A stretch of DNA of 33,145 nt from positions 1 through 33,145 of IMG/VR virus record IMGVR_UViG_2534681702_000003; one strand, written 5' to 3'. The translations under genes were made by a program, and so were the position numbers. This DNA comes from a virus. Lineage: Duplodnaviria; Heunggongvirae; Uroviricota; Caudoviricetes. Below, one piece after another: positions 1-31,772 of the stretch (within the stretch, counting starts at the first letter, position 1; each line of letters starts with the position of its first letter). The notes under the pieces were generated by a model. It had not been told where the DNA came from. It made no database searches and was given only the letters and a program-made list of their open reading frames with translations.

Positions 1-1119
1 TCAAATAACCAACTTAACCCATTCCTGACCTCGAGTATCGTTATAGCGGTCGGTGGTTGCTTGGACTTTATGTCCTAGTAATGTTTTTGTATCGATACCC
101 TGTGCACGGTACAGCCGTTCTGATAGAGAACGTTGTTCATGAAATGTTGGCGGAGTTTTTCCTGCTGGTGGAATTATCCCAGCCAGCTCCCGTGCTTTGG
201 CAAAGTAGTCGCTCAGGTTGTCTTTACTCATCGGCTTTGGTTGTTTCTGGTGCCGACTATGGATTAGATATGGACTTAATATTCTGTCTCGGCACCCATC
301 AATAACTTCTTTTAACGTTATCCCAATGGCATCACAGCGTAGTGTAAGCGGTAACGCCAGACGCATTCCGGTTTTTCCCTGGGTGATATGTAAGTGTTCG
401 TTCCACACATCCGAAAAACGCATGTGGCAAATGTCATCACGGCGCTGACCAGTGACAATCGCAAGAAGCATTGCGTTACGGATAAAGTGTTTTTCAGGTG
501 TTGCGTTGTATATTTTTTGCCAGTCTTCCAGGGTGAGCCTGGCTCTGGTTACTTTAGGGATCGGTTTACGGGTAGCCTCCGGAGGATTCCATCCAGGAGG
601 AACTTCCCCTGCATGCTGTGCTTCTTTATAAATATCAACCCATAATCCGCGATTTACTCTCGCTGTACTGACCATGTCTTTATCCAGCCACTCATCCAGT
701 ATTAATGCAAAGTCTCTTACTTCCAGTTCTTTCAATGGGTGGTTTCCCAGACGGGAAACCAGATATGCAGCCATTCGAGTTTTTTCTTTGTGAGTTGTAG
801 CTGCAATATCTCCATTTTTCAGTCGCGTGTCCTGTATTTTCAGATATCGATCAACCCATGCCTTTAATCTGATACCCCGACGTTTTGTTGCTGACGGACT
901 TTCATCAATTTTGCGCATGAAATATTCAGCTTCTGCTGCAGCTATTCGCTGATTGGCTGTGGAAGCGATTTTTTCTGCCTTACCTTTGTCTGTTCCGAGT
1001 CCGTGAAATTTTCCAGTCACAGGGTTTTTATACTGGTAGTAAACCTTGCCAGTTCTGCGATCAAACTTTTCGTAAAGACCGGCTACGTCAGTGCTGTTTT
1101 TTCGTGGCCTCGGTGACAT
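1..1119 (-). CDS. int: Phage integrase, tyrosine recombinase (lambda Int-like)
   Basis: 372-aa ORF; C-terminus HEQRSLSERLY...LLGHK...DRY resembles lambda Int catalytic region (HELRSLSARLY...LLGHK...YRDDRG); AAGGAG RBS 9 nt upstream of ATG at 1119; stop codon occupies bases 1-3. Confidence 0.92.
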   Translation of the reverse strand: MSPRPRKNSTDVAGLYEKFDRRTGKVYYQYKNPVTGKFHGLGTDKGKAEKIASTANQRIAAAEAEYFMRKIDESPSATKRRGIRLKAWVDRYLKIQDTRLKNGDIAATTHKEKTRMAAYLVSRLGNHPLKELEVRDFALILDEWLDKDMVSTARVNRGLWVDIYKEAQHAGEVPPGWNPPEATRKPIPKVTRARLTLEDWQKIYNATPEKHFIRNAMLLAIVTGQRRDDICHMRFSDVWNEHLHITQGKTGMRLALPLTLRCDAIGITLKEVIDGCRDRILSPYLIHSRHQKQPKPMSKDNLSDYFAKARELAGIIPPAGKTPPTFHEQRSLSERLYRAQGIDTKTLLGHKVQATTDRYNDTRGQEWVKLVI

Positions 1120-1357
1120 GAGTTAAAATCTCCTTCAGTGCATCATCATCGCCAGTATGAATTTCCGGCGCAATTCCCGTTTCACCAGGCCCAACAAATA
1201 CTGCTCGGCGATCTATCAGCCAACGCCCACGAATTTTTTGTGGTCTTGGAACGATGTATCCTAGTTTTCCGTATTTCACCAGGGTAGTGTTTGTTATTGG
1301 GAGACTGAACCGTTTTGGTTTCCATTCGTCGAGCGTTATCAGGTACTGTTCGCTCAT
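1088..1357 (-). CDS. Putative excisionase-like small protein upstream of int
   Basis: 89-aa ORF from ATG at 1357 (GGAGTG RBS upstream); overlaps int start by 32 nt; position equivalent to xis. Confidence 0.5.
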   Translation of the reverse strand: MSEQYLITLDEWKPKRFSLPITNTTLVKYGKLGYIVPRPQKIRGRWLIDRRAVFVGPGETGIAPEIHTGDDDALKEILTHVTEATKKQH

Positions 1358-1418
1358 GGCTATCACTCCGGAACGCGCCAGTTGCAGAATATCAACGATA
1401 ACTGGCGACGGTTGAACA

Positions 1419-2759
1419 TTAAAAATCAGCCTGATTCGGGATCAGTTTTTGCCAGATAGCTGAAACGTATTTTGCCTGGTGACGAGCGTCATCAAGTGCA
1501 TTATGGCGCTCACCTTCGAATGGAATAGCCGTTCTGGCATCGAAGTCTATGGCTTTCCCCAGCTCAACGATTGTGCGTACATCGCGATCGTTGTCGTAAC
1601 GCCACGGGCAGGGGATCCCCTGCCGTTCGTATGAACGGCGCAAAATCGTGTTGTCGAAGTTGGCTCCATTTCCCCAGACCTGAACAAAAAATTCACCGGA
1701 GTTTTCGTCGATAAATTCCCGCAATTGTAACAGTGCATCATCTAACGGGATTTCATCGGTCATAATGGCAGATTGCGCTTCGCGTGATTGCTTAAGCCAC
1801 CATTTAATGGTGTCCCGATCAATGACTCCGCCAGCAGTTTCCAGATCGACAGTCTTACTAAATTCCGGTCCCATATCTCCGGTTTGCGGATCGAAAAATA
1901 TTGCACCTATTGAGATAATCGGGGCATCGGGATTTTTTCCCATGGTTTCAAGGTCGATCATCAGATGAATCCCCGCTCTGCTGGTGGATGTGAGATTATG
2001 ATGACCGTTCGCCTTAATTAAGGGATCTGACGCCTCGCCAGTTTCACTATCGCTGGCATGATGCTGATTGCCGCCAGTGTTCTCCTTGTGCTGATGCGCA
2101 GTGCCTTCCATTTCCTCCGGATCATTTTCCTGAACTTCAGGCTGATTCTCTCCATCGAATATTTCCTGGTATGTTGCGTCCCCCATCACCGCACCACAAT
2201 CAGGGCAGTTGCCGCCACCGCTCTGACCGCAGGCGGTGCAGATTTTTTCCGGTTCCTGTTGCACTACTGGTTCAGGTTGTTTCGTTTCTGGCTCGTTTTG
2301 TTGCGTATTTGGGCTGTTTTGTTCCGCTTTCTGGTCGTTCTGTTCCGTTTCTTGCTGGTTCTGGTTCACAGTATCGCGGGTTTCAATCCCCTTCACCCAT
2401 TTCGGATCATTCGGGTCGCTAATCCCTTCAATAAATTCACCACGTGATGCAGCAAGCAACTTATCGGCGTCAGGCTGGCTGATATTGGCTGCCTGCATAA
2501 TTTTGTTTACTTCGTCAGCGGTAACTTTTACCGGTTCTGGCTGTGCGGTCGTGTCAGATGCACCAGTATTTTGTTGTGAACCTGAGCATGTACTGTTTTT
2601 GCGGGCGAAATATTCTTCTTTCGTGATTTCAGTAGCCCCGGCAGCCAGCGCCTTATCCAGACCAGAAAGTTTGTTTGCGCGACCGTATTTTTCGCCATCC
2701 TTGTCGGTGAAGAGGAAGTAGAACGGCCCCTCACGCTCTACAGATGGTTCGACTTCCAC
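1419..2759 (-). CDS. DEDDh-family 3'-5' exonuclease (DnaQ-like) with Q/E/N-rich N-terminal region and Cys4 zinc-ribbon
   Basis: 446-aa ORF; motifs MIDLETMG (Exo I), VWGNGANFDNTIL (Exo II), HNALDDARH (Exo III); CTACG...CPDCG; apparent GTG start overlapping upstream gene. Confidence 0.75.
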   Translation of the reverse strand: MEVEPSVEREGPFYFLFTDKDGEKYGRANKLSGLDKALAAGATEITKEEYFARKNSTCSGSQQNTGASDTTAQPEPVKVTADEVNKIMQAANISQPDADKLLAASRGEFIEGISDPNDPKWVKGIETRDTVNQNQQETEQNDQKAEQNSPNTQQNEPETKQPEPVVQQEPEKICTACGQSGGGNCPDCGAVMGDATYQEIFDGENQPEVQENDPEEMEGTAHQHKENTGGNQHHASDSETGEASDPLIKANGHHNLTSTSRAGIHLMIDLETMGKNPDAPIISIGAIFFDPQTGDMGPEFSKTVDLETAGGVIDRDTIKWWLKQSREAQSAIMTDEIPLDDALLQLREFIDENSGEFFVQVWGNGANFDNTILRRSYERQGIPCPWRYDNDRDVRTIVELGKAIDFDARTAIPFEGERHNALDDARHQAKYVSAIWQKLIPNQADF

Positions 2760-3889
2760 TTTGCATTCGGTTTTTCGTTGTCCGGAATTGCCGTTTCCAC
2801 TGCATCAGTTTCTGGTACTGGCGACGAGAGAGTATCAGTTGCGCTCTGATTTGTTCCTTCATCTTCAAACACGCCCTTTGTAGTCAGGTATTCAGTAATG
2901 TATTTGTTCAGTGCCACAGAGTCTTTGTGAATGTCGATCGGACGTTCACGAACAAGGCCAAAAATAGTCTGGCGGTCGTAGCGAAGGGCATCAGGCTGTT
3001 TGCGCATTGATGCCGAGATACGCTTCCAGTCTTCGCGGTCGTTGTCGATAACTTCATTTTTTGCCCAGCGATGGATGCTGCCGCCAATGTTTCCGGCATC
3101 CACATCACCAGGCCAGAGAGCGTAGGCCAGTTCATCATCCAGTGTTTTCCATGTCTGCTTGTATTCGCGACGAATGACTGCAGTGACAGGGTGGATTTTT
3201 TCTGCTGAGTTTTCAGTGTACTGTTGATTGGCTCTGGCGCGGGCGAGATCAACAACAGACGTGTATTTCCCGGTTTCCTTGCGTTCACCTTCGCGACGTT
3301 TTTTCCAGATGCGCATCTCTGCCTGAATTTCGGGCCATTTGGCACCAGGCTTACATTTATGCTTAACCCACCCGATGGCATGCAGCTTAAGCTCCGGATA
3401 CATGGCGTTAACTTCTGGCATTTTCATCAACGCTTCAACGATATGTCCGTCGAATGTTGCCATGTCTTCCTGCAACAATTCCTGCGCGCTAATCACCATA
3501 TCAACGGTGATGTTTTCACATGTGTCGAACTTAACCATGACAGCGTTCTGTACTTCAGGGGCCAGCTTGTCAAAAGTGACGTTCATCGGATCTGATTCAG
3601 TCTCAACCGGGACAAAGGAAGCAGACTCCTCATCCCAGCGGTTTTCCTGCATATATTCAGCATCCCAGGAATCGAGGGCAGGGCGGGGTATACCGGGCTT
3701 ATCCTCGCAGATAATAAATTTATAAGCGCAGTCCTGAGCAGCCGGATAATGTTCCAGGAATTGCCAGTGAAATTTTGCTCGAGCACGGCGTTCGTCGCCA
3801 GCTTCAATGGCTGTGGCTACAGCCACAGCGCCTTCTTCCCTTGTTGCCAGTTCGTCAGGAATAGCGGCGCAAATAAAGACTTTACTCAT
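2738..3889 (-). CDS. Hypothetical early-left operon protein (383 aa)
   Basis: Long ORF, GAGG RBS upstream of ATG at 3889, overlaps start of exonuclease gene; no family recognised. Confidence 0.6.
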   Translation of the reverse strand: MSKVFICAAIPDELATREEGAVAVATAIEAGDERRARAKFHWQFLEHYPAAQDCAYKFIICEDKPGIPRPALDSWDAEYMQENRWDEESASFVPVETESDPMNVTFDKLAPEVQNAVMVKFDTCENITVDMVISAQELLQEDMATFDGHIVEALMKMPEVNAMYPELKLHAIGWVKHKCKPGAKWPEIQAEMRIWKKRREGERKETGKYTSVVDLARARANQQYTENSAEKIHPVTAVIRREYKQTWKTLDDELAYALWPGDVDAGNIGGSIHRWAKNEVIDNDREDWKRISASMRKQPDALRYDRQTIFGLVRERPIDIHKDSVALNKYITEYLTTKGVFEDEGTNQSATDTLSSPVPETDAVETAIPDNEKPNAKWKSNHL

Positions 3890-3969
3890 TTTGTTTTAAC
3901 CTCATTACAGATTTAAGGGTGAACAAATCCCTGCCATTGCTGGCATATAAAAATGAAACCGGATATTAA

Positions 3970-4173
3970 TTACGGTGCTGTTTTAAGTCCTGCCGGGATT
4001 TCGTTATTATCCATGTGAATAACTTTATCGACCGGATAACAGTTACCGGGAATTTTCTGTTCCACTGCGGCAACCATGCATTCTTTCATTGAGCCGTATA
4101 CGCCAGTAACCATGTCAACCGGTTCACCGGAAACAAGAAAAACCGTCAGAACAAGTGCAAATGTAGTATTCAT
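3970..4173 (-). CDS. ydfD: YdfD-like small protein with N-terminal hydrophobic segment
   Basis: 67 aa from MNTTFALVLTVFLVSG...; start overlaps dicB stop (ATGA); same position as ydfD downstream of dicB in Qin. Confidence 0.55.
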   Translation of the reverse strand: MNTTFALVLTVFLVSGEPVDMVTGVYGSMKECMVAAVEQKIPGNCYPVDKVIHMDNNEIPAGLKTAP

Positions 4174-4358
4174 TGCCAGCATCCTTTTTGCATCAGGCGT
4201 AAACGGGCCAGCATTGAAACAATGCATATTTTATCCAATAGCTCCCGTTCTTGTTTCCTCTTGTTAATGGCATCTTCAGTAAATACTGGGTTACTGATAG
4301 TGACACCAATTTCAAAACAACCTTCAGACGTATTAACGTTTGGTAATAACGTTTTCAT
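4170..4358 (-). CDS. dicB: Cell-division inhibitor DicB
   Basis: 62 aa MKTLLPNVNTSEGCFEIGVTISNPVFTEDAINKRKQERELL... matches recalled DicB almost residue for residue; GAGGGTG RBS. Confidence 0.8.
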   Translation of the reverse strand: MKTLLPNVNTSEGCFEIGVTISNPVFTEDAINKRKQERELLDKICIVSMLARLRLMQKGCWQ

Positions 4359-4527
4359 TATCGCACCCTCAACAATGAATTTTGTGATGCGGTGCCTGGT
4401 GCCTCCAGGTGACGTTAACCAGTTAACAATTAACGCCGGATACAGAGAACCCATCCATAACACTGTTTTTGGTTTTAACTGTTCCGCGTGCGCTCAGCCG
4501 CATTCACCGCATCACAAAATTCACTTT

Positions 4528-4585
4528 AAAAAGGGCAGCAGAGCAGTCACGGAGTAAAACTGATACCACCAAACGTCACCAGAAA
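4528..4585 (-). ncRNA. dicF: DicF small RNA
   Basis: Minus-strand sequence UUUCUGGUGACGUUUGGUGGUAUCAGUUUUACUCCGUGACUGCUCUGCUGCCCUUUUU matches recalled DicF, ends in U-tract, lies immediately upstream of dicB. Confidence 0.8.
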
Positions 4586-4920
4586 ATTGATAACAGAGGG
4601 CGTTGCAGCGGGGTTGTCACTTAAGCGTATGGTCAACCTGGCAACCCGGTGTCTCAATGGGGGAGGAATAACCCCGCCATACTTACCGCCGCGCCATTTC
4701 GCGGAGTGCCACAACCGGAAGCGCACGGTCGAATTAAATTTAACGACACCGTACAGTGAGACGAACTTCGCCGTGCGCTTTCGCGTTATGCCCTGGCTTT
4801 TCAGGGATATATCCTTTCAGTAAACTGTCAGTACCGGATTCTTATCCGTGTCCGGCGCACGACCACACGTGGCAGCGTGTTGGTCTCCATTTTTAACCCA
4901 GAACCTCAATGGAGGATAAA

Positions 4921-5130
4921 ATGCCAAACAAAAAAAGAAATCCGCTTATTGAAAAACAGATTGAATGCCTGGTAAATCAACTCAGGCAATCAGGGTTATT
5001 AAAAACTCATTCAGAGTTGAGGCTCACAGAATCAGCATTCGACGATAAATTAAATAATGTCCTTTATAATGGCATTATTGATTTTAATCGTTCAGTTGGT
5101 CGCCTCGGCCCTGCTGGTGTTTCCTTATAA
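4921..5130 (+). CDS. Hypothetical small protein (69 aa), opposite orientation to early-left operon
   Basis: ATG at 4921 preceded by GGAGGAT; stop abuts stop of convergent 212-aa gene; no homology recognised. Confidence 0.35.
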   Translation: MPNKKRNPLIEKQIECLVNQLRQSGLLKTHSELRLTESAFDDKLNNVLYNGIIDFNRSVGRLGPAGVSL

Positions 5131-5769
5131 TTACCAGTCAATCCAGAGCGGACCGTGTTCAGCGTAAATATAACTGTACACATCCAGATTATATTTGTGG
5201 TCTGTTAAGAACAGGCCGCAAATACATGCCGAAGCTTCCAGGGCAGCGGCTCTGTTACTGAATAACCATGTGGCAACATTCCAGCGTTTTTCTGCATCCC
5301 AGTCTTTCTCAAGGCCTGATACCATGAAGAAACCGTTAGTGTTGCCATCAAATAATTCTGTTTCCAGATTTTTAAGCAATGCCTGATGGACTCTTGCCAG
5401 GTATTCCGCCGGAATTTCGCCACGAATTCTGATGAGATTGTCATAAACAAACATGTTCCCCGCATATGGCGATTTTTCTTTCTTGTTTTTTAAACCAGCA
5501 TCATGAGCAAACTGATCAATTTCTTCTTCCGTTGGTTTCGTATTGATGTTTTGCGCTGTCGTTTCTGCAATTTTATTTGCCACACTATCTGAGTCGTGTT
5601 TATTTACAGACGCACAGAAATACAATCCGGTAAACGCATCGCGCACATTACGAGCCATATTATCAGTGTCTTTTTTCGTTACCGATTCCAATGCAAGTTC
5701 GTTCAGACGATGACGAAGTGTGTGTGCTGCAATCTCCTGGATTGAAGTAGGTAAATCTTTAAATTCCAT
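5131..5769 (-). CDS. Hypothetical protein (212 aa)
   Basis: ORF with GAGG RBS before second ATG (MEFKDL...); start overlaps stop of upstream DUF1391-like gene. Confidence 0.6.
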   Translation of the reverse strand: MEFKDLPTSIQEIAAHTLRHRLNELALESVTKKDTDNMARNVRDAFTGLYFCASVNKHDSDSVANKIAETTAQNINTKPTEEEIDQFAHDAGLKNKKEKSPYAGNMFVYDNLIRIRGEIPAEYLARVHQALLKNLETELFDGNTNGFFMVSGLEKDWDAEKRWNVATWLFSNRAAALEASACICGLFLTDHKYNLDVYSYIYAEHGPLWIDW

Positions 5770-5780
5770 CGTCAACCTCA

Positions 5781-5933
5781 TCAGTCAGAGTTTCTTGCTA
5801 ACCAGCGATGCGCGCCAGCTTCGGTTTTAAACGTTTTGCTTTTGGTATACGTCATCGCGGTGAACGTGCCGTCCTGGTTGGGAAACACGCCGCACACCAG
5901 AGATTCGTTGTTGCCAAGATCGATAGTATCCAT
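5781..5933 (-). CDS. YdfA/YdaF-like small protein (DUF1391-like)
   Basis: 50 aa MDTIDLGNNESLVCGVFPNQDGTFTAMTYTKSKTFKTE... resembles recalled YdaF/YdfA; GAGG RBS. Confidence 0.55.
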   Translation of the reverse strand: MDTIDLGNNESLVCGVFPNQDGTFTAMTYTKSKTFKTEAGAHRWLARNSD

Positions 5934-6014
5934 GTTGACCTCATTTCCCCTTAACGCCGGGGTAGCGGAACAAAAACCTGCTGCATAGTTATTAAAGTTG
6001 AACCCTGCCGTCAT

Positions 6015-6225
6015 GTTCTTACGCCTCGGGCTGGCTACTTAACCCCTGACCACTGCCGGGTAACTCGAAGTATTGCCCTGCATTCTGTGGGGTGGAGTGA
6101 GGGAATGAATGAAGTTTAGAAAAATGAACTTTACAGGTCAATGTTTTTTTATCAAAACATTTTAAGCAGGCAGCTGTTAAGCCATCACCACGATGGCATA
6201 CAGTTAATCAAATAGATGAGGTTGG
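6015..6225. promoter_or_regulatory. Putative leftward early promoter/operator region (pL/OL-like)
   Basis: Non-coding gap downstream of cI; contains GTTTTTTTATCAAAAC (6143-6158) sharing the GTTTT-N6-AAAAC pattern of the cI-cro intergenic sites. Confidence 0.4.
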
Positions 6226-6864
6226 TTAAATATCTTGTTGAATTTTAAAGCATACGCCCAATATGCAAGATAGATCATCCAGCATAATTGAAGGGTAGCG
6301 AGGATTCGTGGGGACTAAAAGAATATCCGGCCCTTCTATCTCCAGTTTACGAATGACAGGTGTTGTGGTCCCTTTGGGTAAGGCAAGGACAATATTTCCT
6401 GGTTGTACGGTTCGATCGGGATCAACAAAAACTGTTGAACCATTTGGGATGGAAACTCCCCCACCAGATGTTGACATACTGTCACTCTCTAGAACAACTG
6501 CAAAGGTATTGGCCGGGATTTCTCCGACAAGCTGCACACAAGAGGTTATTGAGGAATTTTTCATATAATCACTCCAGCTTGCTGCCTGCTGAAGTGATAG
6601 TAGCGGAACCGTTTTTATCGGCGGTAAAGATAGATCAAGCGAATCACCTGTATTTAACTCTCCTCCATTAAGAAGCCAATTTTCGTTTACTTTCAATATC
6701 TTTGCCAGTGAACTTATGTAACGCGAGGACGGCGCTCCTCCACCGTTCATCCATTGACTTACGGAGCCTTTTGATGCGCCAGTGGCATTGACAAGGTCTT
6801 TGCCTTTCAGGTTTAGCGCATGCATACGTTGGGTTATGCGTTCAGATATTGTTTGCTTGCTCAT
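6226..6864 (-). CDS. CI-like prophage repressor (N-terminal HTH, C-terminal S24 LexA-like peptidase)
   Basis: 212 aa; HTH LKGKDLVNATGASKGSVSQW; C-terminal ...AVVLESDSM... (GDSM-like catalytic Ser motif); divergent from cro-like gene. Confidence 0.88.
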   Translation of the reverse strand: MSKQTISERITQRMHALNLKGKDLVNATGASKGSVSQWMNGGGAPSSRYISSLAKILKVNENWLLNGGELNTGDSLDLSLPPIKTVPLLSLQQAASWSDYMKNSSITSCVQLVGEIPANTFAVVLESDSMSTSGGGVSIPNGSTVFVDPDRTVQPGNIVLALPKGTTTPVIRKLEIEGPDILLVPTNPRYPSIMLDDLSCILGVCFKIQQDI

Positions 6865-6955: not shown

Positions 6956-7186
6956 ATGAAAAAATCAGAAGTATTAGGCTATTTTGGCGGAGTTGTTAAA
7001 ACAGCCGCAGCTCTAGGAACGTCAAAAACCACAGTCAGCATGTGGGGGGAAGAGGTTCCGTGGAAATGGGCGTTGCTAATTCAGGCAGTCACTGCCGGGG
7101 CGCTCAAATATGAGTTACACATACCGACGGTTGTCATTCCCGGTTCTGATCATAATCCGCCTTCTAACCAAGGGGGGGATTCATGA
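6956..7186 (+). CDS. Cro-like HTH regulator (YdaS-like)
   Basis: 76 aa from ATG 6956 (GGAG RBS); first gene of rightward operon opposite cI. Confidence 0.65.
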   Translation: MKKSEVLGYFGGVVKTAAALGTSKTTVSMWGEEVPWKWALLIQAVTAGALKYELHIPTVVIPGSDHNPPSNQGGDS

Positions 7187-7608
7187 AAATCAAGCATGAA
7201 CACATCCGCATGGCGATGAATGCCTGGGCGCGTCCTGATGGCGAAAAAGTTCCAGCAGCTGGAATAACCCAGGCTTATTTTGAGTTGGGTATGACGTTCC
7301 CAGAACTGTATGACGACAGCCATCCGGAAGCCCTGGCTCGCAATACCCAGAAAATTTTCCGCTGGATAGAGAAAGACACCCCTGATGCAGTTGAAAAAAT
7401 TCAGGCGTTGTTACCAGCGATCGAAAAGGCAATGCCACCTTTGCTGGTGGCCAGAATGCGCAGCCACAGTTCAGCTTATTTTCGGGAGCTGGTGGAGACG
7501 CGGGAGCGACTGGTGAGAGACGCTGATGATTTTGTCGCAGTGGCAATCGCCGGTTTCAATCAGATGAACCGTGGTGGCCCGGCAGGAAATGCTGTGGCAG
7601 TGCATTGA
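7183..7608 (+). CDS. YdaT-like protein (proposed CII functional analogue)
   Basis: 141 aa starting MKIKHEHI..., as recalled for YdaT; start overlaps cro-like stop. Confidence 0.55.
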   Translation: MKIKHEHIRMAMNAWARPDGEKVPAAGITQAYFELGMTFPELYDDSHPEALARNTQKIFRWIEKDTPDAVEKIQALLPAIEKAMPPLLVARMRSHSSAYFRELVETRERLVRDADDFVAVAIAGFNQMNRGGPAGNAVAVH

Positions 7609-8790: not shown

Positions 8791-9213
8791 GTGGCAAAAG
8801 TTTTTACACAAGAAGAGCGGGAAAAAATTAAAGGGCAGGTTGTTGAACTCGTACGCCAGAGTGGGCGCGAGACGTTACGACAACTGGAAACTAAAACTGG
8901 GGCAACAAGATATCTGATGAGCGTTCTGGCCAGAGAGCTGGTTGCCAGTGGCGATGTATACAACTCTGGTTACGGGTTATTCCCGTCTGAACAGGCGCGT
9001 AAGGACTGGCAAAATGCCCGTAAAAAGCTCTCAAGGGCAAAGCTGAAGAAACCATCTGCGGTTGATCCGGACCTTATCTGGTCATTACCTGACGGAGAAA
9101 TACGTCGCTACGACAGGCGTCAGAACATAATCTGTCGCGAGTGCCGGAAGAGTGAGGTTATGCAGCGAGTGCTGGCGTTTTATCAGGGTAATTTTCAGGA
9201 GGTGATGGCGTGA
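8791..9213 (+). CDS. Hypothetical protein (140 aa), replication-module position
   Basis: GTG start with AGGAGG RBS; no family recognised. Confidence 0.55.
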   Translation: MAKVFTQEEREKIKGQVVELVRQSGRETLRQLETKTGATRYLMSVLARELVASGDVYNSGYGLFPSEQARKDWQNARKKLSRAKLKKPSAVDPDLIWSLPDGEIRRYDRRQNIICRECRKSEVMQRVLAFYQGNFQEVMA

Positions 9214-9505
9214 GAGTGAGAGTCTATATCGCCGGTCCAATGACCGGGTATAAAAATTTCAACCGTGAGGCGTTTCACAATGCGGAAGAGGAACTGAAAC
9301 GGGAAGGGCATACCGTTTTAAATCCGGCTGTGCTTCCGGATGGGCTGACACAGCCGCACTACATGGATATTGCATGGCAATGATTCGTTGTGTGGATGCG
9401 ATTTACATGCTGAAAGGCTGGCAGCGGTCAGCAGGTGCTAAGGCAGAACTGGCGCTGGCGGAGAAACTGGGGCATGCAGTTATTTTCCAGGAGGAGGTAC
9501 AGTGA
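9210..9505 (+). pseudogene. DUF4406-like (nucleoside 2-deoxyribosyltransferase-like) gene split by a frameshift
   Basis: N-part VRVYIAGPMTGYKNF...HYMDIAWQ stops at 9381-9383; C-part MIRCVDAIYMLKGWQRSAGAKAELALAEKLG... continues in another frame from 9380. Confidence 0.5.
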
Positions 9506-9891: not shown

Positions 9892-10416
9892 ATGGAAATA
9901 ACTAAAGAACGATTATTGGAAATAGCAAATCTTAGTGAAAGGGCATTAAGTGATGGGAGGATTATTTCTCCTGATGCTTATGAATCAGTTACAAGTATAG
10001 AAATAATAACGATGGCCAGGATGCTTCTTGGTTGCCTCAAAAAAGAATATAAAAAAAAGGTGGATAGCAATGCTAATATATATGATATTTTGGACAGTTG
10101 GGGGGCTTGGGCTGCAGCTGGAAATAGTTCTATCAACTGGCAGCAAGTGGCTGATAAATATAAAGATGTAGTACCTCATGGTAAGAAATTACGCCGTCAG
10201 TGTGGCAACGATGAAGGTCGTATGATTGATACCTGCATGTTGAAGCTTAAACAATATAGAATAGATGACTATGAGTTAATTATCGCTCATTTTGTTATAG
10301 GTATATCTTTGCGTACAATAGCACGAAGGTACAAATGTTCAGATGGAACAATAAGAAAGAATATACAACTTACAATGGGAGTATTGTTAGGATTGTCTTT
10401 TTATGTGCAATTATAG
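9892..10416 (+). CDS. Antitermination protein Q-like (phage 82/QuuD family) with about 60-aa N-terminal extension
   Basis: Motifs LDSWGAWAAAG, RRQCGNDEGRMIDTCMLKLK, CSDGTIRKNIQ align with recalled QuuD (WGAWAA, CCDDDAMIICGCMARLKK, CSDGYIGKRLQ); GGTGGAG RBS; GNRA hairpin CCGCCCGAAAGGGCGG at 9864-9879. Confidence 0.65.
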   Translation: MEITKERLLEIANLSERALSDGRIISPDAYESVTSIEIITMARMLLGCLKKEYKKKVDSNANIYDILDSWGAWAAAGNSSINWQQVADKYKDVVPHGKKLRRQCGNDEGRMIDTCMLKLKQYRIDDYELIIAHFVIGISLRTIARRYKCSDGTIRKNIQLTMGVLLGLSFYVQL

Positions 10417-10421
10417 ATATA

Positions 10422-10901
10422 TCACATGAGCCTTGTTATGTCCTTTAGACGCGACCAGGTAGTATAAAATTTTTTAAATGTAATAAGCAGGAAAAAAATT
10501 CCCACTTGGAGTAATAGTTGGGCATATGTGTGCTCGTCGGCATCTTTTACTAGTGGGAATTTAAACTTTAGTGTATCAGGGAAAAATAATAAAATGATAA
10601 AAATAATACAAACTGATAGTAACCATCCCATAGTGGAGTGCATTTCTTCGGTCAGTTTTTTCAAATAACCAGTTTTTCCTATATTTCTAATTAGCGTATT
10701 ATCTCTAGCTGAAGCAATCAAGGTAAGCGAACCTAAAACAAAGCCAAATAATATCCCAGAAAATGTAGAAACGGCCGAAGCGATTGGCTGAATTTGTGCA
10801 AAATTTAGCTTTGCAGAAAGAGGCCATGCGATGATACAAAAAACAACAGAGGCTAAATTATAACCATAACTGTACAAAGTTATCAATTTCCCCTTTTTCA
10901 T
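10422..10901 (-). CDS. Four-helix membrane protein (159 aa), RexB-like architecture
   Basis: Four hydrophobic segments (about aa 16-30, 40-64, 90-107, 126-143); GGAG RBS; 15 bp downstream of the 304-aa gene. Confidence 0.75.
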   Translation of the reverse strand: MKKGKLITLYSYGYNLASVVFCIIAWPLSAKLNFAQIQPIASAVSTFSGILFGFVLGSLTLIASARDNTLIRNIGKTGYLKKLTEEMHSTMGWLLSVCIIFIILLFFPDTLKFKFPLVKDADEHTYAQLLLQVGIFFLLITFKKFYTTWSRLKDITRLM

Positions 10902-10916
10902 ACCATCGCTCCAAAA

Positions 10917-11831
10917 TTAATCAACTCTTTGATTGGCTACTCCAAAGTATGCCTTCAATTCATCATCTTTACTATCTTTTGCAAGAGTTAAGGCGCTCCA
11001 AATGCTGCCAACTAATGGATACCTACCTCCAAGTTCAACATCTGTGTAGTAGACTAATTTGTCTGCTACAAGATCGATAGGATGCTGTACACCGGTCTCA
11101 ATGTCTTGGGTTTCTAGTTTAAGTTTTTCAACCTCAAAAGTCTCTAGTGTTTCTTTAAAGGCTCTTTTTAGTTGAGAACCTAGATAGCGAGATTCAGGAT
11201 CTTCAGAACGACTATCCCCACGTAATGTAAGATTTACTTTGGCAGAATTAGTACCATTTAGAGTGGCTATCAATGCATTGTTGAAGTTATGTTCAATATC
11301 CTCATATAGTTGCACATTCTTTGGCCGAGCGATACCGATTTCTAGAGTTTTGATTCGAACTTCATTACGCATCAACCACTTTAAACTACTGGTCTGAATG
11401 ATGGGATTAACAGTTGTATTTTGTGAACTGTTGGAAAGATATTTACTTAATAGCAACCAGCCATAACAGAGTCTGTTTCGTTGAATTATTAAAACTGAGT
11501 CTTGGGTATAAAAATGAAAATAAGCTTTTTCTAATAAGTTTTCATTGATTTCAAGTTTAATTTCTCTTTCTTCACCTCCGGCTACAGCAACATGAGGGAG
11601 ATTATTGGTTCTGTGTTTTCCTATAACTCCCCTGAAACCATAGTCGGTTCTTTCCATGAAGCGCATTTCAACTAGTTTATTTCCTATTTTACGTACAGTT
11701 TTGTCTCGGCCTTCGCTGTATGACTCAAAAATTTTTGAAAAAACAGCTTCAGGTGAATTAACTCCTGCATTTGTATCAGTGCTTATAGTGTGACATTGAT
11801 AAAAATCGAAGAAAAAGCGCTTGCTAGCCAT
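10917..11831 (-). CDS. Hypothetical soluble protein (304 aa), first gene of two-gene operon
   Basis: Uninterrupted low-GC ORF; no recognised domain; upstream AT-rich 270-bp promoter region. Confidence 0.75.
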   Translation of the reverse strand: MASKRFFFDFYQCHTISTDTNAGVNSPEAVFSKIFESYSEGRDKTVRKIGNKLVEMRFMERTDYGFRGVIGKHRTNNLPHVAVAGGEEREIKLEINENLLEKAYFHFYTQDSVLIIQRNRLCYGWLLLSKYLSNSSQNTTVNPIIQTSSLKWLMRNEVRIKTLEIGIARPKNVQLYEDIEHNFNNALIATLNGTNSAKVNLTLRGDSRSEDPESRYLGSQLKRAFKETLETFEVEKLKLETQDIETGVQHPIDLVADKLVYYTDVELGGRYPLVGSIWSALTLAKDSKDDELKAYFGVANQRVD

Positions 11832-12154
11832 TGCAAAAATTTCCTGTAAAAAATAATTACATACTTAAGATACTACAAAGAATAATGCGTACGCAAAATT
11901 TTTTGTTGAGTAGAATATGTTCGCGGGGTATTTTTCGTTAAGATATAATTACCATGGTAACTTTTGCGTTGGTAATGCATTATGTGGTGGAGAAAAAGAG
12001 AGAGTCTTATCTTTAAATTATCGCCAGCCTATATGACTATATGAGTAGTATTTAGATGGGAAATTGTTGAGTTATTGAAAGGAACCATAACCTTTATGTA
12101 AAATTACTGCGGGTGCTTGAGGTTATCTGTCTCAGGCATGCCACCAAAAGGCAG

Positions 12155-12232
12155 ATAGAGAAAAGCCCCAGTTAACGTTACGCGTCCTGCAAGACGTTTA
12201 ACATTAATCTGAGGCTCAATCTATGAACGGCA
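12155..12232 (-). ncRNA. Predicted Sok-like antisense RNA
   Basis: Inferred from hok/sok organisation; candidate minus-strand promoter TTGCCT-17-TAACCT inside mok 5' end; boundaries approximate. Confidence 0.3.
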
Positions 12233-12435
12233 AATCTAGGTTAGCCTCTTACGTGCCGAAAGGCAAGGAGAAGCAGGCTATGAAGCAGCAAAAGGCGATG
12301 TTAATCGCCCTGATCGTCATCTGTTTAACCGTCATAGTGACGGCACTGGTAACGAGGAAAGACCTCTGCGAGGTACGAATCCGAACCGGCCAGAAGGAGG
12401 TCGCTGTCTTCACAGCTTACGAACCTGAGGAGTAA
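12223..12435 (+). CDS. Mok-like in-frame leader ORF overlapping hok
   Basis: 70-aa ORF whose last 51 codons are hok; same arrangement as mokC/hokC. Confidence 0.5.
   Translation: MNGKSRLASYVPKGKEKQAMKQQKAMLIALIVICLTVIVTALVTRKDLCEVRIRTGQKEVAVFTAYEPEE
12280..12435 (+). CDS. Hok/Gef-family type I toxin
   Basis: 51 aa MKQQKAMLIALIVICLTVIVTALVTRKDLCEVRIRTGQKEVAVFTAYEPEE, near-identical in pattern to recalled Gef/HokC; AAGGAG RBS. Confidence 0.85.
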   Translation: MKQQKAMLIALIVICLTVIVTALVTRKDLCEVRIRTGQKEVAVFTAYEPEE

Positions 12436-26562: not shown

Positions 26563-29532
26563 ATGGCAGTAAAGATTTCAGGTGTACTGAAAGACGGCAC
26601 AGGAAAACCAGTACAGAACTGCACAATCCAGCTGAAAGCAAAACGTAACAGCACCACGGTGGTGGTGAACACGCTGGCCTCAGAAAATCCGGATGAAGCC
26701 GGGCGTTACAGCATGGACGTTGAGTACGGTCAGTACAGCGTTATTCTGTTGGTGGACGGATTCCCGCCGTCACATGCCGGGACCATCACCGTGTATGAAG
26801 ATTCCCGACCCGGTACGCTGAATGATTTTCTCGGTGCCATGACGGAGGATGATGCCCGTCCGGAGGCACTGCGCCGTTTTGAACTGATGGTGGAAGAGGT
26901 GGCGCGTAACGCGTCCGCAGTGGCACAGAACACGGCAGCCGCGAAGAAGTCAGCCAGTGATGCCAGCACATCAGCCCGTGAGGCGGCAACCCATGCGACT
27001 GATGCTGCAGGCTCAGCACGCGCAGCCAGCACGTCAGCCGGACAGGCCGCGTCGTCGGCTCAGTCAGCGTCTTCCAGCGCAGGAACGGCATCGACAAAGG
27101 CCAGTGAAGCAGCGAAAAGTGCTGCTGCTGCAGAGTCATCAAAAAGCGCGGCAGCTACCAGCGCCAGTGCCGCGAAAACGTCAGAAACGAATGCCGCAGC
27201 ATCACAAAAATCGGCAGCCACTTCTGCATCCACAGCGACCACGAAGGCGTCAGAAGCTGCCACCTCGGCACGGGGGGCGGCGGCCTCAAAAGAGGCAGCG
27301 AAATCATCAGAAACGAATGCATCATCAAGTGCCAGTAGTGCAGCTTCCTCGGCAACGGCGGCAGGAAATTCCGCGAAGGCGGCAAAGACGTCTGAGACAA
27401 ACGCTAAGTCTTCTGAAACGGCAGCAGCACAGAGTGCCTCAGCTGCGGCAGGTTCAAAAACAGCGGCTGCATCGTCGGCCAGTGCCGCGTCAACAAGTGC
27501 CGGGCAGGCCTCAGCCAGTGCCACCGCCGCCGGAAAATCGGCAGAAAGCGCCGCATCATCCGCTTCAACAGCCACAACGAAGGCTGGCGAAGCCACTAAG
27601 CAAGCCACTGCAGCAGCGAGGTCTGCTTCTGCAGCAAAAACCTCTGAAACAAATGCAAAGACTTCAGCAGACAATGCTGCTTCCTCTAAGGCGGCAGCCG
27701 CATCGTCCGCTGGTTCAGCGGCGTCATCGGCATCATCTGCGTCTGCTTCAAAAGATGAGGCGACCAGACAAGCGTCAGCAGCGAAAGGTAGTGCCACGAC
27801 AGCAACAACGAAAGCATCAGAGGCGGCAGGCAGTGCGACGGCTGCATCTCAGAGCAAAGTTGCTGCTGAATCCGCGGCAACGCGTGCCGAAACAGCAGCA
27901 AAACGGGCAGAGGATATTGCTGATGCCGTATCTCTGGAAGATGCGAGCACGACGAAAAAAGGTGTGGTTCAGCTCAGCAGTGCGACCAACAGCACTTCCG
28001 AGTCACTGGCGGCAACACCAAAGGCAGTAAAGGCAGCATATGACCTTGCTAACGCAAAATATACCGCTCAGGATGCAACGACGGCACGAAAAGGGATAGT
28101 TCAGCTCAGTAGCGCCACTAACAGCCCGTCTGAAACGCTGGCTGCGACACCAAAAGCGGTTAAGGCGGTAATGGATGAAACGAACAAGAAAGCGCCTTTA
28201 AACAGTCCTGCGCTGACCGGAACGCCAACAACGCCAACTGCGCCAAAAGGGACTAATAATACTCAGATCGCAAGCACGGCTTATGTGATGGCCGCGATTG
28301 CCGCACTTGTAGACTCGTCGCCTGACGCACTGAATACGCTGAACGAGCTGGCGGCGGCGCTGGGAAACGACCCGAATTTTGCGACCACCATGACTAACGC
28401 GCTTGCGGGTAAGCAACCGAAAGATGCCACCCTGACGGCGCTGGCCGGGCTTGCTACTGCGGCAGACAGGTTTCCGTATTTTACGGGGAATGATGTCGCC
28501 AGCCTGGCAACCCTGACAAAAGTCGGGCGGGATATTCTTGCGAAATCGACCGTTGCCGCTGTTATCGAATACCTCGGTTTACAGGAAACGGTAAGTCAGG
28601 CTTCTGGCGCATTACAGAAAAACCAGAACGGCGCAGATATTCCAGGAAAAGATACCTTCACCAAAAATATTGGTGCCTGCCGCGCATATAGCTCATGGCT
28701 GAATATTGGTGGCGATAGTCAGGTCTGGACAACCGCGCAATTTATTTCGTGGCTGGAGAGTCAGGGGGCATTTAACCATCCTTACTGGATGTGCAAAGGC
28801 TCATGGGCTTATGCAAATAATAAGGTCATTACAGATACAGGTTGCGGAAATATTTGTCTTGCAGGTGCTGTGGTGGAAGTTATTGGCACTCGCGGCGCAA
28901 TGACCATACGCGTTACTACGCCGAGCACGTCCAGCGGTGGCGGAATTACTAACGCTCAATTCACTTATATTAATCATGGTGATGCTTACGCTCCTGGCTG
29001 GCGACGAGACTACAACACGAAAAACCAGCAGCCTGCATTTGCTTTAGGGCAAACAGGACGCAGGGTCGCAAATGATAAAGCTGTTGGCTGGAACTGGAAT
29101 AGCGGTGTTTATGATGCAGATATCAGTGGTGCATCGACATTAATCCTCCACTTCAATATGAATGCGGGGAGTTGCCCTGCTGTACAGTTCCGCGTGAATT
29201 ACAGGAACGGCGGTATTTTTTATCGTTCAGCGCGTGATGGTTATGGCTTTGAAGCTAACTGGTCAGAGTTTTACACCACAACACGCAAACCCTCTGCGGG
29301 GGATGTTGGTGCATATACGCAGGCAGAATGTAACTCAAGGTTTATTACAGGTATTCGCCTTGGCGGTCTGTCATCTGTTCAGACATGGAAAGGCCCCGGC
29401 TGGTCTGACAGGTCAGGTTATGTCGTTACGGGTTCAGTTAACGGAAACCGTGATGAATTAATTGATACAACTCAGGCAAGGCCAATTCAGTATTGCATTA
29501 ATGGGACGTGGTATAACGCGGGGAGTATTTAA
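26563..29532 (+). CDS. stf: Side tail fibre protein Stf (constant part plus current variable C-terminal part)
   Basis: N-terminus MAVKISGVLKDGTGKPVQNCTIQLKA... as recalled for lambda Stf; long Ala/Ser/Thr-rich repeat region; C-terminus ends ...RPIQYCINGTWYNAGSI. Confidence 0.9.
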   Translation: MAVKISGVLKDGTGKPVQNCTIQLKAKRNSTTVVVNTLASENPDEAGRYSMDVEYGQYSVILLVDGFPPSHAGTITVYEDSRPGTLNDFLGAMTEDDARPEALRRFELMVEEVARNASAVAQNTAAAKKSASDASTSAREAATHATDAAGSARAASTSAGQAASSAQSASSSAGTASTKASEAAKSAAAAESSKSAAATSASAAKTSETNAAASQKSAATSASTATTKASEAATSARGAAASKEAAKSSETNASSSASSAASSATAAGNSAKAAKTSETNAKSSETAAAQSASAAAGSKTAAASSASAASTSAGQASASATAAGKSAESAASSASTATTKAGEATKQATAAARSASAAKTSETNAKTSADNAASSKAAAASSAGSAASSASSASASKDEATRQASAAKGSATTATTKASEAAGSATAASQSKVAAESAATRAETAAKRAEDIADAVSLEDASTTKKGVVQLSSATNSTSESLAATPKAVKAAYDLANAKYTAQDATTARKGIVQLSSATNSPSETLAATPKAVKAVMDETNKKAPLNSPALTGTPTTPTAPKGTNNTQIASTAYVMAAIAALVDSSPDALNTLNELAAALGNDPNFATTMTNALAGKQPKDATLTALAGLATAADRFPYFTGNDVASLATLTKVGRDILAKSTVAAVIEYLGLQETVSQASGALQKNQNGADIPGKDTFTKNIGACRAYSSWLNIGGDSQVWTTAQFISWLESQGAFNHPYWMCKGSWAYANNKVITDTGCGNICLAGAVVEVIGTRGAMTIRVTTPSTSSGGGITNAQFTYINHGDAYAPGWRRDYNTKNQQPAFALGQTGRRVANDKAVGWNWNSGVYDADISGASTLILHFNMNAGSCPAVQFRVNYRNGGIFYRSARDGYGFEANWSEFYTTTRKPSAGDVGAYTQAECNSRFITGIRLGGLSSVQTWKGPGWSDRSGYVVTGSVNGNRDELIDTTQARPIQYCINGTWYNAGSI
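28562..28593. repeat. Left inverted repeat / recombination site of invertible segment (gix/cix-like)
   Basis: TTATCGAATACCTCGGTTTACAGGAAACGGTA; reverse complement of 31687-31718 differs at 2 positions; lies inside stf. Confidence 0.7.
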
Positions 29533-29534
29533 CG

Positions 29535-30068
29535 ATGATGCACTTAAAAAACATTACTGCTGGCAACCCTAAAACAAAAGAGCAATACCAGCTAACAAAG
29601 CAATTTAACATCAAATGGCTTTATTCAGATGATGGAAAAAACTGGTATGAGGAACAAAAGAATTTCCAGCCAGACACTTTGAAAATGGTCTATGACCATA
29701 ACGGCGTTATTATTTGTATTGAAAAGGATGTTTCAGCAATTAATCCAGAGGGTGCAAGCGTCGTTGAATTACCTGATATTACAGCAAATCGCCGGGCTGA
29801 TATTTCGGGGAAATGGATGTTCAAAGATGGCGTAGTGATAAAGCGAACTTATACCGAGGAAGAGCAGAGGCAACAAGCGGAAAATGAAAAGCAAAGCCTG
29901 TTGCAACTTGTCAGGGATAAAACCCAGCTATGGGACTCACAGCTACGGCTGGGCATCATTTCCGACGAGAATAAACAAAAATTAACCGAGTGGATGCTCT
30001 ATGCGCAGAAAGTCGAATCTACAGACACTTCCGGCCTGCCAGTAACGTTTCCCGAACAACCAGAATGA
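29535..30068 (+). CDS. tfa: Tail fibre assembly protein Tfa
   Basis: 177 aa; conserved Tfa N-terminus [22 protein letters not shown]... Confidence 0.85.
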   Translation: MMHLKNITAGNPKTKEQYQLTKQFNIKWLYSDDGKNWYEEQKNFQPDTLKMVYDHNGVIICIEKDVSAINPEGASVVELPDITANRRADISGKWMFKDGVVIKRTYTEEEQRQQAENEKQSLLQLVRDKTQLWDSQLRLGIISDENKQKLTEWMLYAQKVESTDTSGLPVTFPEQPE

Positions 30069-30096
30069 GAGAAGGCCCGCTATCGGGCCTTAATTT

Positions 30097-30624: not shown

Positions 30625-30627
30625 AAA

Positions 30628-31718: not shown

Positions 31719-31772
31719 TGGCCGTTTCTGGCCTGCATGGCATGATTTGTGCTTTTGGACGGGAGATTCAGC

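Follow-up and report, generated by a model that had tools for sequence, protein, structure and literature searches.

Genes and features at the locus

The window analyzed here, a stretch of 33,145 nt of viral DNA, carries two overlapping open reading frames on its minus strand: a 446-aa ORF at positions 1419-2759, which begins with GTG, and a 383-aa ORF at positions 2738-3889, which begins with ATG, with an overlap of 22 nt. Both ORFs had been noticed in the initial annotation, where they were described as a translationally coupled pair, and both are indeed present. Nevertheless, comparison with relatives shows that positions 1419..3889 (minus strand) hold one exonuclease gene of the intact ydfE type, which encodes 823 aa in those relatives and is split here by a one-base deletion.

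The genes around it belong to the early-left region of a prophage. Downstream, at positions 1..1357 of the minus strand, lie the excisionase (1088-1357) and integrase (1-1119) genes, as given by the RefSeq annotation of a sequence identical to the window bar the one-base gap; in that annotation xis follows directly after the exonuclease gene, with no annealing-protein gene between them. Upstream, on the same strand, a dicBF-type early-left operon (3970..4584, from annotation and Rfam) comprises a DUF1482 gene (3970-4173), dicB (4170-4358) and the DicF sRNA (4533-4584; Rfam DicF, 66.9 bits against a gathering score of 48). The upstream gene order is the dicF-dicB-ydfD-ydfE order of K-12 Qin. 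Moreover, the place between dicB/DicF and xis-int is the slot occupied by recE-recT in Rac, which bears out the earlier assignment of the locus to the recE-recT or exo-bet position. We rejected a promoter of the gene's own, which would have allowed expression in lysogens, since no promoter-like site was found on its coding strand, where counts were lower than the shuffled expectation. Given this, and the location of the gene in a repressed leftward operon, it should be off in the lysogen.

A single gene is interrupted by one missing base

E. coli chromosomes that are identical to positions 1-5200 of the window bar one base carry a single 2472-nt CDS of 823 aa at 1419-3890; its intact product, WP_001763154.1, is annotated there as one CDS and is the identical protein without the frameshift. 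The base in question, the sole difference in these 5.2 kb, belongs to a homopolymer at 2771..2775, for which direct comparison and translations gave T5 on the plus strand (A5 on the coding strand) in the window and T6/A6 in relatives. Because one A of the A6 run is missing, the gene is read in the window as a 383-aa fragment and a 446-aa ORF. The reading frame shifts after Lys373 (..DNEK/TECK..); the in-frame part of the 383-aa ORF corresponds to the N-terminal 373 residues of the 823-aa polypeptide, and its tail consists of 10 out-of-frame residues (PNAKWKSNHL) before the stop. The GTG "start" of the 446-aa ORF is the in-frame codon for Val378 of the 823-aa protein, with no Shine-Dalgarno sequence upstream of it. 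On the 823-aa profile of PHROG 2082, the two ORFs occupy positions 1-379 (383-aa ORF) and 379-823 (446-aa ORF).

The missing base is also the sole gap in a 24.8-kb alignment to the CP025856 prophage, and all 60 of the 60 matches listed in complete E. coli genomes, the best one included, exceed the query by one base. Among the IMG/VR contigs, 1 carried the A5 allele and at least 120 carried A6; the exact split products were found on one contig each (E. coli MP021566.1), the intact protein on 27 contigs, and the 90% cluster of the latter has 18,012 members. A match to the junction region was obtained in 3,588 of 5,426 complete genomes of E. coli. At 182 of 200 further DEDDh loci one ORF encodes both the middle module and the DEDDh domain described below, the isolated phages mEp460_ev081 and vB_EcoS-640R1 have one annotated CDS, and the two-ORF arrangement is not conserved among relatives. 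The gene is carried by the isolated phages HannyBb and Tritos as well. The split allele is rare and the intact allele very common. Hence, positions 1419-3889 represent one gene of the early-left prophage region, which corresponds to an intact K-12 ydfE minus one A of the A6 run; the "pair" is an artefact of this gap and no new two-gene recombination module, and the supposed 383-aa partner is the N-terminal part of the same polypeptide, severed by the deletion. The gene itself is a common E. coli prophage gene, already known and annotated. Its K-12 counterpart, the Qin pseudogene ydfE (b1577), shares the gene order dicF-dicB-(ydfD/DUF1482)-ydfE-int and, over its first 255 aa, 97% identity with the 383-aa ORF, but it is truncated by IS2, whereas the window copy is complete bar the one-base deletion.

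The A5 allele may reflect a sequencing or assembly error in a draft genome of 2013, with the gene intact in the organism. We give this possibility, which is compatible with the single-gene explanation, a little less than an even chance. In its favor, the base falls in a homopolymer, no other indel is seen in 24.8 kb of alignment to a near-identical complete genome, and only a single assembly contains the exact split products. However, A5 is also found in a second, 94%-identical copy with insertions carrying IS-like ORFs, a genuinely decaying gene; a 446-aa product with the same start is encoded in another genome, and about 5 of 200 other loci appear disrupted. From these three observations it follows that real inactivation of the gene happens, K-12 ydfE included. 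The window's allele would probably produce the nuclease poorly or not at all. It might still be made if ribosomes reinitiated at the GTG, or if tRNA-Lys slipped by -1 on GAA-AAA-C, a shift that would restore exactly the wild-type reading.

The N-terminal and middle modules belong to the YdfE family

The 823-aa product begins with an N-terminal module (residues 1-230; 3200..3889, minus strand; Pfam YdfE_N, PF27430), followed by a middle module (residues ~235-375; 2766..3187, minus strand; Pfam YdfE_C, PF27432) that alignments show to be shared with RecE-type proteins and that is marked by the motif ..LD.E.A.ALWPGDV....RWAK...REDWKR.S...R....L.YDR.TIF.LVRE.P... The presence of both domains in the 383-aa product places it in the YdfE family, these being precomputed Pfam hits on the exact product. 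In a Pfam search of the 383-aa ORF no hit was obtained at E<=1, including PF06630, which K-12 RecE matches with E=6e-98. An annealing-protein profile or fold (RecT/Redbeta, ERF or Rad52-like) was not found for this ORF either, in agreement with the earlier view that it is not RecT, Redbeta or ERF. A match to a non-recombination family had been proposed as a point against a role in recombination; this came true only in the sense that the ORF matches YdfE_N/YdfE_C and the middle of RecE, two regions with no assigned function.

The N-terminal module is acidic (pI ~4.95) and is predicted by AF2 to consist of an alpha/beta subdomain and a helical domain. Over residues 1-200 most block-mean pLDDT values are 80-90, falling to 67-73 at residues 91-110, and the N-terminal model is of moderate confidence only (pLDDT 71.7, pTM 0.35). 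It gave no informative fold match; thus, the idea that the protein targets DNA ends rests on association and not on a recognised DNA-binding fold.

The central region is homologous to RecE

Residues 262-625 (2016..3106, minus strand) are homologous to residues 278-591 of Rac RecE (BLASTP E=2e-59). The NCBIfam model for exodeoxyribonuclease VIII (NF007259) matches with E=6.8e-80, over profile positions 271-603 only and with 269 bits, far below its cutoff of 1269. The most RecE-like part comprises residues 476-625, in which 25-residue blocks are 36-92% identical to K-12 RecE, the highest values (88-92%) being reached at residues 476-500 and 551-575.

This part also contains a low-complexity acidic linker with a 21-nt tandem repeat of 4 copies (2277..2360, no strand assigned; TRF), which encodes Q/N/E-rich heptads at residues ~510-538 and faces a 14-residue gap of RecE in the alignment; repetitive DNA had been reported near 2280-2370. 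The compositional bias is limited to residues ~500-625 (Q+E+N+P = 0.62 at 501-550), and the description of the first 250 aa of the 446-aa ORF as low-complexity holds for that part, the rest being compositionally unbiased. A putative zinc ribbon (C551-x2-C554-x7-C562-x2-C565; 2196..2240, minus strand), read from the sequence, is conserved in K-12 RecE (CNACGQTGGDNCPDCG). The four-Cys motif had been recognised before, although its spacing is x6 (CTACG-x6-CPDCG) rather than x9. As 30 other representatives of the family lack the ribbon, we rejected it as a defining feature. The "Q/E/N-rich zinc-ribbon N-terminus" corresponds to the region homologous to RecE residues ~455-591.

The C-terminal domain is of the DEDDh exonuclease type

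Residues 642-813 (1452..1967, minus strand) form an Rv2179c-like/DexA-type DEDDh 3'-5' exonuclease domain (PF16473). The match (E=2.3e-67, 226.5 bits against a cutoff of 27; residues 265-436 of the 446-aa ORF) covers profile positions 2-177 of 177. The catalytic residues D646 and E648 (motif I, DxE), D746 (motif II) and H796 and D801 (motif III, Hx4D) align with D7, E9, D119, H186 and D191 of DexA, and the five positions are invariant in all five aligned sequences, among them T4-type DexA and three phage homologues. No PF12684 (PD-(D/E)XK) hit was obtained. The nuclease had been called DEDDh and not RecB-fold, subject to a DEDDh profile search, and the profile match together with the full catalytic set confirms this.

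The PDB sequence match is to 8kel/8ken, "Exodeoxyribonuclease" of the T4 DexA type (E=5.6e-6); the 182-aa exonuclease that phage mEpX2 encodes as a stand-alone protein shares 59% identity with residues 642-816. Many phages have the domain, which occurs in 820 of 50,697 phage records. T4 DexA (exonuclease A) and its stand-alone homologues, which include the mEpX2 exonuclease, the "3'-5' exoribonuclease" of the P2-like phage 899 and E. coli EcD, belong to the same DEDDh fold family and have all five catalytic residues. DexA-type proteins are, however, stand-alone proteins of 180-230 aa, whereas here the domain is fused behind a RecE-like scaffold of ~630 aa; it is 25% identical to T4-type DexA and, by alignment, lacks the equivalent of Trp152. 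The names given to the gene vary: Pfam describes PF16473 as "3'-5' exoribonuclease Rv2179c-like domain", its founding member Rv2179c being described as an exoribonuclease, RefSeq calls copies "exonuclease", "3'-5' exonuclease" or, in some cases, "3'-5' exoribonuclease", and the gene is routinely mislabelled "exodeoxyribonuclease VIII".

The protein is a mosaic with an exchangeable nuclease

The 823-aa product is a mosaic in which a YdfE_N and YdfE_C front is joined through a linker homologous to the RecE middle to a C-terminal DEDDh domain that replaces the PD-(D/E)XK domain of RecE. Breakpoint analysis showed 85% identity to a protein with a PD-(D/E)XK nuclease over residues 1-499, a RecE match over residues 476-625 and the match to the stand-alone phage exonuclease over residues 642-816. 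All four combinations of N-terminal module (YdfE_N or RecE_N) and nuclease (DEDDh or PD-(D/E)XK) exist, and a third nuclease type (PHROG 7838) occurs on the same scaffold, followed by a Gp157/"Mu Gam-like end protection" gene.

The closest known system is Rac RecE (exodeoxyribonuclease VIII, 866 aa) with RecT, which occupies the same early-left slot next to xis-int. Both exonucleases have a similarly large acidic non-catalytic region (net charge about -45 here and -49 in RecE), a homologous middle that includes the DKLLAASRGEF..GISDPNDPKWVKGI block and the CxxC..CxxC ribbon, and a C-terminal nuclease. They differ in the N-terminal ~260 aa, which are YdfE_N here and not PF06630, in the catalytic domain, which is DEDDh (3'-5' type) here and PD-(D/E)XK (PF12684, 5'-3') in RecE, and in the lack of a downstream recT here. 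Lambda Exo-Bet (Red) lies at a comparable position in the leftward early operon, but is unrelated in sequence; the present gene lacks an accompanying annealing protein, and its nuclease differs in fold and in expected polarity.

DEDDh versions are not accompanied by a RecT/Bet/Erf-like gene

Among 80 IMG/VR loci with a RecE-type scaffold, sampled by searches with two representatives, 45 carried PD-(D/E)XK versions and 33 DEDDh versions. The recT gene lay immediately downstream in 43 of the 45 PD-(D/E)XK loci, the other 2 being cut by the contig end (43/43 complete loci), whereas a RecT/Bet/Erf-like gene was found in 0 of the 33 DEDDh loci and in 0 of 200 further ones; in many DEDDh loci the prophage edge is reached 1-2 kb beyond the gene. 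Nuclease type thus predicts recT almost perfectly (43/43 versus 0/233). The annealing-protein search covered RecT (three seeds), Bet, Erf and one other recombinase; divergent RecT genes that phmmer missed with K-12 RecT alone were recognised by Pfam and added as seeds. A narrower alignment of the middle module against GTDB genomes gave 11 loci.

In two DEDDh loci, Pfam scans of the neighbours identified only repressor, Rrf2-like, xis and int genes, and an M90 metallopeptidase ORF beyond the integrase. No RecT/Bet/Erf gene is annotated or PHROG-detectable in the whole prophage of the window. The stand-alone mEpX2 homologue lies inside an erf-ssb-exonuclease-abc2 module, which by analogy fits a role at DNA ends. 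The consistent absence of a RecT/Bet/Erf-like gene beside DEDDh versions argues against the proposed alternative two-component recombinase, and hints that their task differs from recombination of the RecET type.

Possible function of the exonuclease

In the literature searched, we found no experimental characterisation of the gene, which about two thirds of complete E. coli genomes carry, and none of the papers listed for ydfE has the term in its title or abstract. In our opinion the best explanation, and one that we regard as rather probable, is a single gene whose product is an early-left DNA-end 3'-5' exonuclease acting without a dedicated annealing protein; as far as function is concerned, this is the most likely role. 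We infer the substrate (DNA or RNA), polarity and timing of the 823-aa protein. Its synthesis would follow induction or infection, from the leftward operon that is under repressor control; the ~630 residues outside the catalytic domain would serve as a scaffold bringing the nuclease to DNA ends, and the DEDDh domain would release 3'-terminal nucleotides through two-metal-ion hydrolysis. In contrast to RecE, the protein would need no dedicated single-strand annealing protein. It would trim or process ends during phage replication, recombination or repair, as T4 DexA does at breaks, instead of forming one component of a two-component recombinase.

Exclusion genes are frequent in the early regions of prophages, and dicB of the dicBF-type operon is an example. 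It is conceivable, though improbable, that the exonuclease is likewise an inter-phage competition or defence nuclease ("HREX"-like), whose DEDDh domain would degrade modified (e.g., 5hmC-containing) T-even DNA and whose scaffold would modulate or target it. The catalytic residues and, by the alignment, the D169 equivalent are conserved, DEDDh versions occur without a recombination partner, DexA homologues are reported to be most frequent in Escherichia, and one of them, E. coli EcD (HAK9828821.1), is reported to cut T4 DNA and to protect cells (PMC12153337). The equivalents of D169 and of the tetramer residue D90 both read as Asp in that alignment, which has only 25% identity and leaves the positions uncertain. 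However, the equivalent of DexA W152, which 5hmC recognition requires, reads as Asp there too; EcD is apparently a short stand-alone protein (with A78 for DexA D90) and not an 823-aa fusion, and the gene lies in a repressed leftward operon without a promoter-like site of its own. A PADLOC search for membership of a defence system gave only a generic Cas-associated DEDDh model (E=2e-5).

An RNA-directed 3'-5' exoribonuclease like Rv2179c, which would trim dicBF operon transcripts or degrade host RNA, appears very improbable. The family name and description in Pfam, the exoribonuclease name of some RefSeq copies and the operon shared with DicF, a processed sRNA, are in its favor, but T4 DexA, the nearest relative to have been characterised in phages, is an exonuclease of DNA (PMC12153337). 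Moreover, the scaffold is common to the DNA exonuclease RecE and to the version paired with a Gam-like DNA-end protein, and a stand-alone homologue lies between ssb and abc2 in a DNA recombination module. Finally, two separate coupled genes, a 383-aa annealing-type or accessory protein and a DEDDh exonuclease forming an alternative two-component module, are effectively refuted: the 22-nt overlap in this one sequence, the recE-recT slot of Rac and the mechanical conceivability of termination-reinitiation at the GTG face one ORF in relatives, a near-singleton split allele, an internal Val codon without a ribosome-binding site, an out-of-frame tail and a 383-aa ORF without an annealing-protein profile or fold.

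A broader reading, unlikely but with a sizeable chance, is that the YdfE/RecE-type non-catalytic region serves temperate phages in general as a "nuclease-delivery" scaffold. At least three unrelated exonuclease domains would then have been exchanged on it, and each would follow a partner rule of its own. These rules may be RecT for PD-(D/E)XK, a Gam-like end protein for the PHROG-7838 nuclease and none for DEDDh. If so, the DEDDh version would be a self-sufficient effector, a role undescribed for lambdoid phages, with SSAP-independent end processing into host recombination, or an inter-phage or anti-defence nuclease, as candidates. The relation between nuclease type and recT suggests that the long N-terminal region of RecE is such a reusable scaffold. 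This idea and the different task suggested for the DEDDh version both have a bearing on recombineering, where full-length RecE behaves differently from its nuclease domain, and on the biology of prophages in pathogenic E. coli.

One gene split by a missing base

Two overlapping ORFs on the minus strand, of 383 aa (ATG start, 2738-3889) and 446 aa (GTG start, 1419-2759; overlap 22 nt), had been taken in the initial annotation for a translationally coupled pair and a possible alternative recombination or anti-defence module containing a DEDDh (DnaQ-like 3'-5') exonuclease. The ORFs, the DEDDh domain, a DNA repeat and a cysteine motif are all present, but the pair is a single gene with one base missing. 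The 'exonuclease' profile PHROG 2082 (823 positions) matches the 383-aa ORF with its positions 1-379 and the 446-aa ORF with 379-823, and the isolated phages mEp460_ev081 and vB_EcoS-640R1 have a single CDS annotated at the locus (2472 and 2442 nt, respectively). Moreover, several complete E. coli chromosomes, whose 5201-base match to window 1-5200 is given as '100.0%', annotate one CDS, WP_001763154.1, as 'exonuclease' or '3'-5' exonuclease'. Base-by-base comparison revealed a sole difference, five T at 2771-2775 in the window versus six elsewhere (coding strand, A5 versus A6). At this site the wild-type protein of 823 aa, whose numbering we use throughout, reads ..PDNEK-TECKVEVEPSVE..., while in the window the frame changes after Lys373 and ten foreign residues (PNAKWKSNHL) precede a stop. 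In the intact protein, the supposed GTG start corresponds to Val378; upstream, its frame continues as ..KTECK.., and no Shine-Dalgarno sequence precedes it. Since the profile spans both ORFs, relatives carry one CDS and the GTG is internal, we reject separate coupled genes, and a new recombination module is unsupported as well. Apart from the frameshift the RefSeq protein is identical, and the gene is already known, annotated and very widespread.

The 24.8-kb alignment with the prophage of CP025856, a near-identical complete genome, has 72 substitutions but no gap other than this base. When window 2600-2950 was compared with 5,426 complete E. coli genomes, 60 of 60 among the matches listed exceeded the query length by one base. 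Exact copies of the 383-aa and the 446-aa product are each confined to one contig, from E. coli MP021566.1 (GCA_000354855.1; EMX25702.1, EMX25701.1), and 27 contigs carry the identical intact protein, whose 90% cluster has 18,012 members; IMG/VR contains one occurrence of the A5 sequence and at least 120 of the A6 sequence. The missing base may reflect either a true mutation or a fault in the assembly. Inactivation seems to recur at the A-run, because the only other A5 copy lies in a different, 94%-identical gene (L027, a related locus; IMGVR_UViG_2526164619_000006, 1525-6474), further broken by two ~1.25-kb insertions with IS-like ORFs, and because another E. coli genome encodes a 446-aa '3'-5' exoribonuclease' (NZC69888.1) that likewise starts at GTG/Val378 and differs by three substitutions, pointing to a second disruption of this gene upstream. 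Purely speculatively, if tRNA-Lys slipped by -1 on GAA-AAA-C, the exact wild-type reading would be restored, so the A5 allele could be leaky.

Domain anatomy of the intact protein

Precomputed Pfam matches assign residues 1-230 to YdfE_N and ~235-375 to YdfE_C. The K-12 Qin pseudogene ydfE, which is cut short by IS2 and lies in the likewise ordered dicF-dicB-ydfD-ydfE, is 97% identical to the first 255 aa. A role of the front part as an annealing protein is unsupported: a Pfam search gave no match at E<=1, and a Foldseek search of its AF2 model (residues 1-371, pLDDT 71.7; block means mostly 80-90 over residues 1-200, falling to 67-73 at 91-110) against viral models gave none at E<=1e-3. The family is narrow: in a set of 1.84 billion representatives, only 168 clusters match at E<=1e-3.

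Rac RecE 278-591 aligns with residues 262-625 (E=2e-59), identity peaking from ~476 to 625, putative zinc ribbon included; the NCBIfam exodeoxyribonuclease VIII model is matched at its positions 271-603 only, with a score far under the cutoff. By composition, residues ~500-625 form an acidic, Q/E/N/P-rich linker, whose heptads are encoded by a tandem repeat of four 21-nt units (2277-2360), in line with the repetitive DNA of the initial annotation, and face a 14-residue alignment gap in RecE. The four cysteines noted earlier are likewise present, although spaced CTACG-x6-CPDCG instead of x9; this zinc ribbon was found only in the present E. coli type and K-12 RecE and is missing from 30 other family representatives.

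Residues 642-813 constitute the DEDDh nuclease (Rv2179c-like domain, PF16473, E=2.3e-67), which bears out the earlier assignment. The catalytic residues of T4-type DexA correspond in the alignment to D646, E648, D746, H796 and D801, which do not vary among five phage homologues; the only PDB sequence match is the 227-residue 'Exodeoxyribonuclease' of 8kel/8ken, a T4 DexA-type sequence. The domain is 59% identical to a stand-alone 182-aa exonuclease of phage mEpX2. The protein is mosaic, residues 1-499 being 85% identical to a 987-aa protein (locus L015) with a C-terminal PD-(D/E)XK domain, followed by recT.

Exchangeable nucleases on a common scaffold

When the modules of family representatives were mapped, the N-terminus proved to be either YdfE_N or the RecE N-domain PF06630, the middle module was common, linker modules were optional, and the C-terminal nuclease was either DEDDh or RecE-type PD-(D/E)XK; each N-module occurs with each nuclease. 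A third class, found in Pectobacterium phage ZF40 (gp07), Erwinia and Pantoea, comprises ~710-760-aa proteins on the YdfE_N/YdfE_C scaffold with a PHROG 7838/2489 'exonuclease' C-terminus (related loci L009:3950-6627, L018:6338-9117, L019:6338-9165 and L008:3974-6672). Their PHROG 7838-type nuclease has no Pfam or PDB sequence match, and downstream of each gene comes a Sipho_Gp157 (PF05565) gene, labelled 'Mu Gam-like end protection' in PHROGs.

Of the proteins at 80 IMG/VR loci that are related to a representative of the RecE_N type, 45 have a PD-(D/E)XK C-terminus, and in 43 of these loci a RecT-family gene begins at or overlaps the stop codon, the remaining two ending with the contig. Using three RecT proteins, Bet, Erf and one other recombinase as seeds, and with many loci ending at the prophage edge, we found a RecT/Bet/Erf-like ORF in the locus of none of the 33 DEDDh proteins of this sample and in none of 200 further DEDDh loci, mostly of the E. 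coli YdfE type (middle module and DEDDh domain within one ORF in 182). Pfam scans of neighbours in two non-E. coli DEDDh loci gave only a repressor, an Rrf2-like protein, xis, int and, past the integrase, one M90 metallopeptidase ORF. The window's own prophage encodes RusA and a DUF968/HNH protein; no annealing protein is annotated or PHROG-detectable in it. Wider interest attaches only to the exchange of the nuclease compared with RecE and to the strict recT rule, and our literature search found no paper on either.

Operon context and proposed function

Immediately upstream, and in the same orientation, are DicF sRNA (Rfam, 66.9 bits), dicB and a DUF1482 gene that occupies the place of ydfD in K-12 (together 3970-4584); thus, the exonuclease is the distal gene of a dicBF-type early-left operon, in a lambdoid prophage inserted beside potC. 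Excisionase (1088-1357) and integrase (1-1119) genes lie downstream.

The locus comprises one gene of defined domain composition and operon position, with intact catalytic residues and no RecT/Bet/Erf-type partner. We infer an early-left 3'-5' exonuclease that depends on Mg; by analogy, the RecE-like scaffold would bring it to DNA ends, and it would act without an annealing protein of its own. A DNA-end role is suggested indirectly, in that other nuclease versions of the scaffold pair with RecT or a Gam-like end protein, and in that the stand-alone mEpX2 homologue sits in an erf-ssb-exonuclease-abc2 module. Alternatively, it could be an HREX-type nuclease acting on modified phage DNA, given that an E. 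coli DexA homologue protects against T4 (PMC12153337); however, the equivalent of Trp152 is Asp here, by weak alignment, and the gene has no promoter-like site of its own. An RNA exonuclease, the remaining alternative, is suggested by the Pfam family name.

Other features of the prophage

The CP025856 prophage matches the window at 99.7% up to 24791 and diverges over 24792-33145, the tail-gene region, which is lambdoid mosaicism. Its cro-like and DUF4406 genes (window ~6956-7199 and ~9210-9505) are annotated as frameshifted and align with the window without gaps; hence, the prophage may already be partly defective. A low-GC island (10000-12000; 0.35 versus ~0.50 around) looks like an inserted moron. 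Its two leftward ORFs encode, at 10917-11831, a DUF6731 family protein and, at 10422-10901, a protein of 159 aa; both belong to PHROGs of unknown function, gave no PADLOC match and are possibly an uncharacterised defence or exclusion pair. A sok antitoxin RNA (12111-12285; Rfam, 108.7 bits) lies beside the gene that is annotated as toxin hokD in the near-identical prophage used as reference. The segment 15429-16774 holds a DNA methyltransferase (PADLOC type II MTase, E=1.7e-159) and then two tRNA genes (16528-16600 and 16701-16774), tRNA-Ile and tRNA-Arg in the reference genome annotation. Near the right end, 32902-33105 matches the Rfam IS009 RNA (129 bits).
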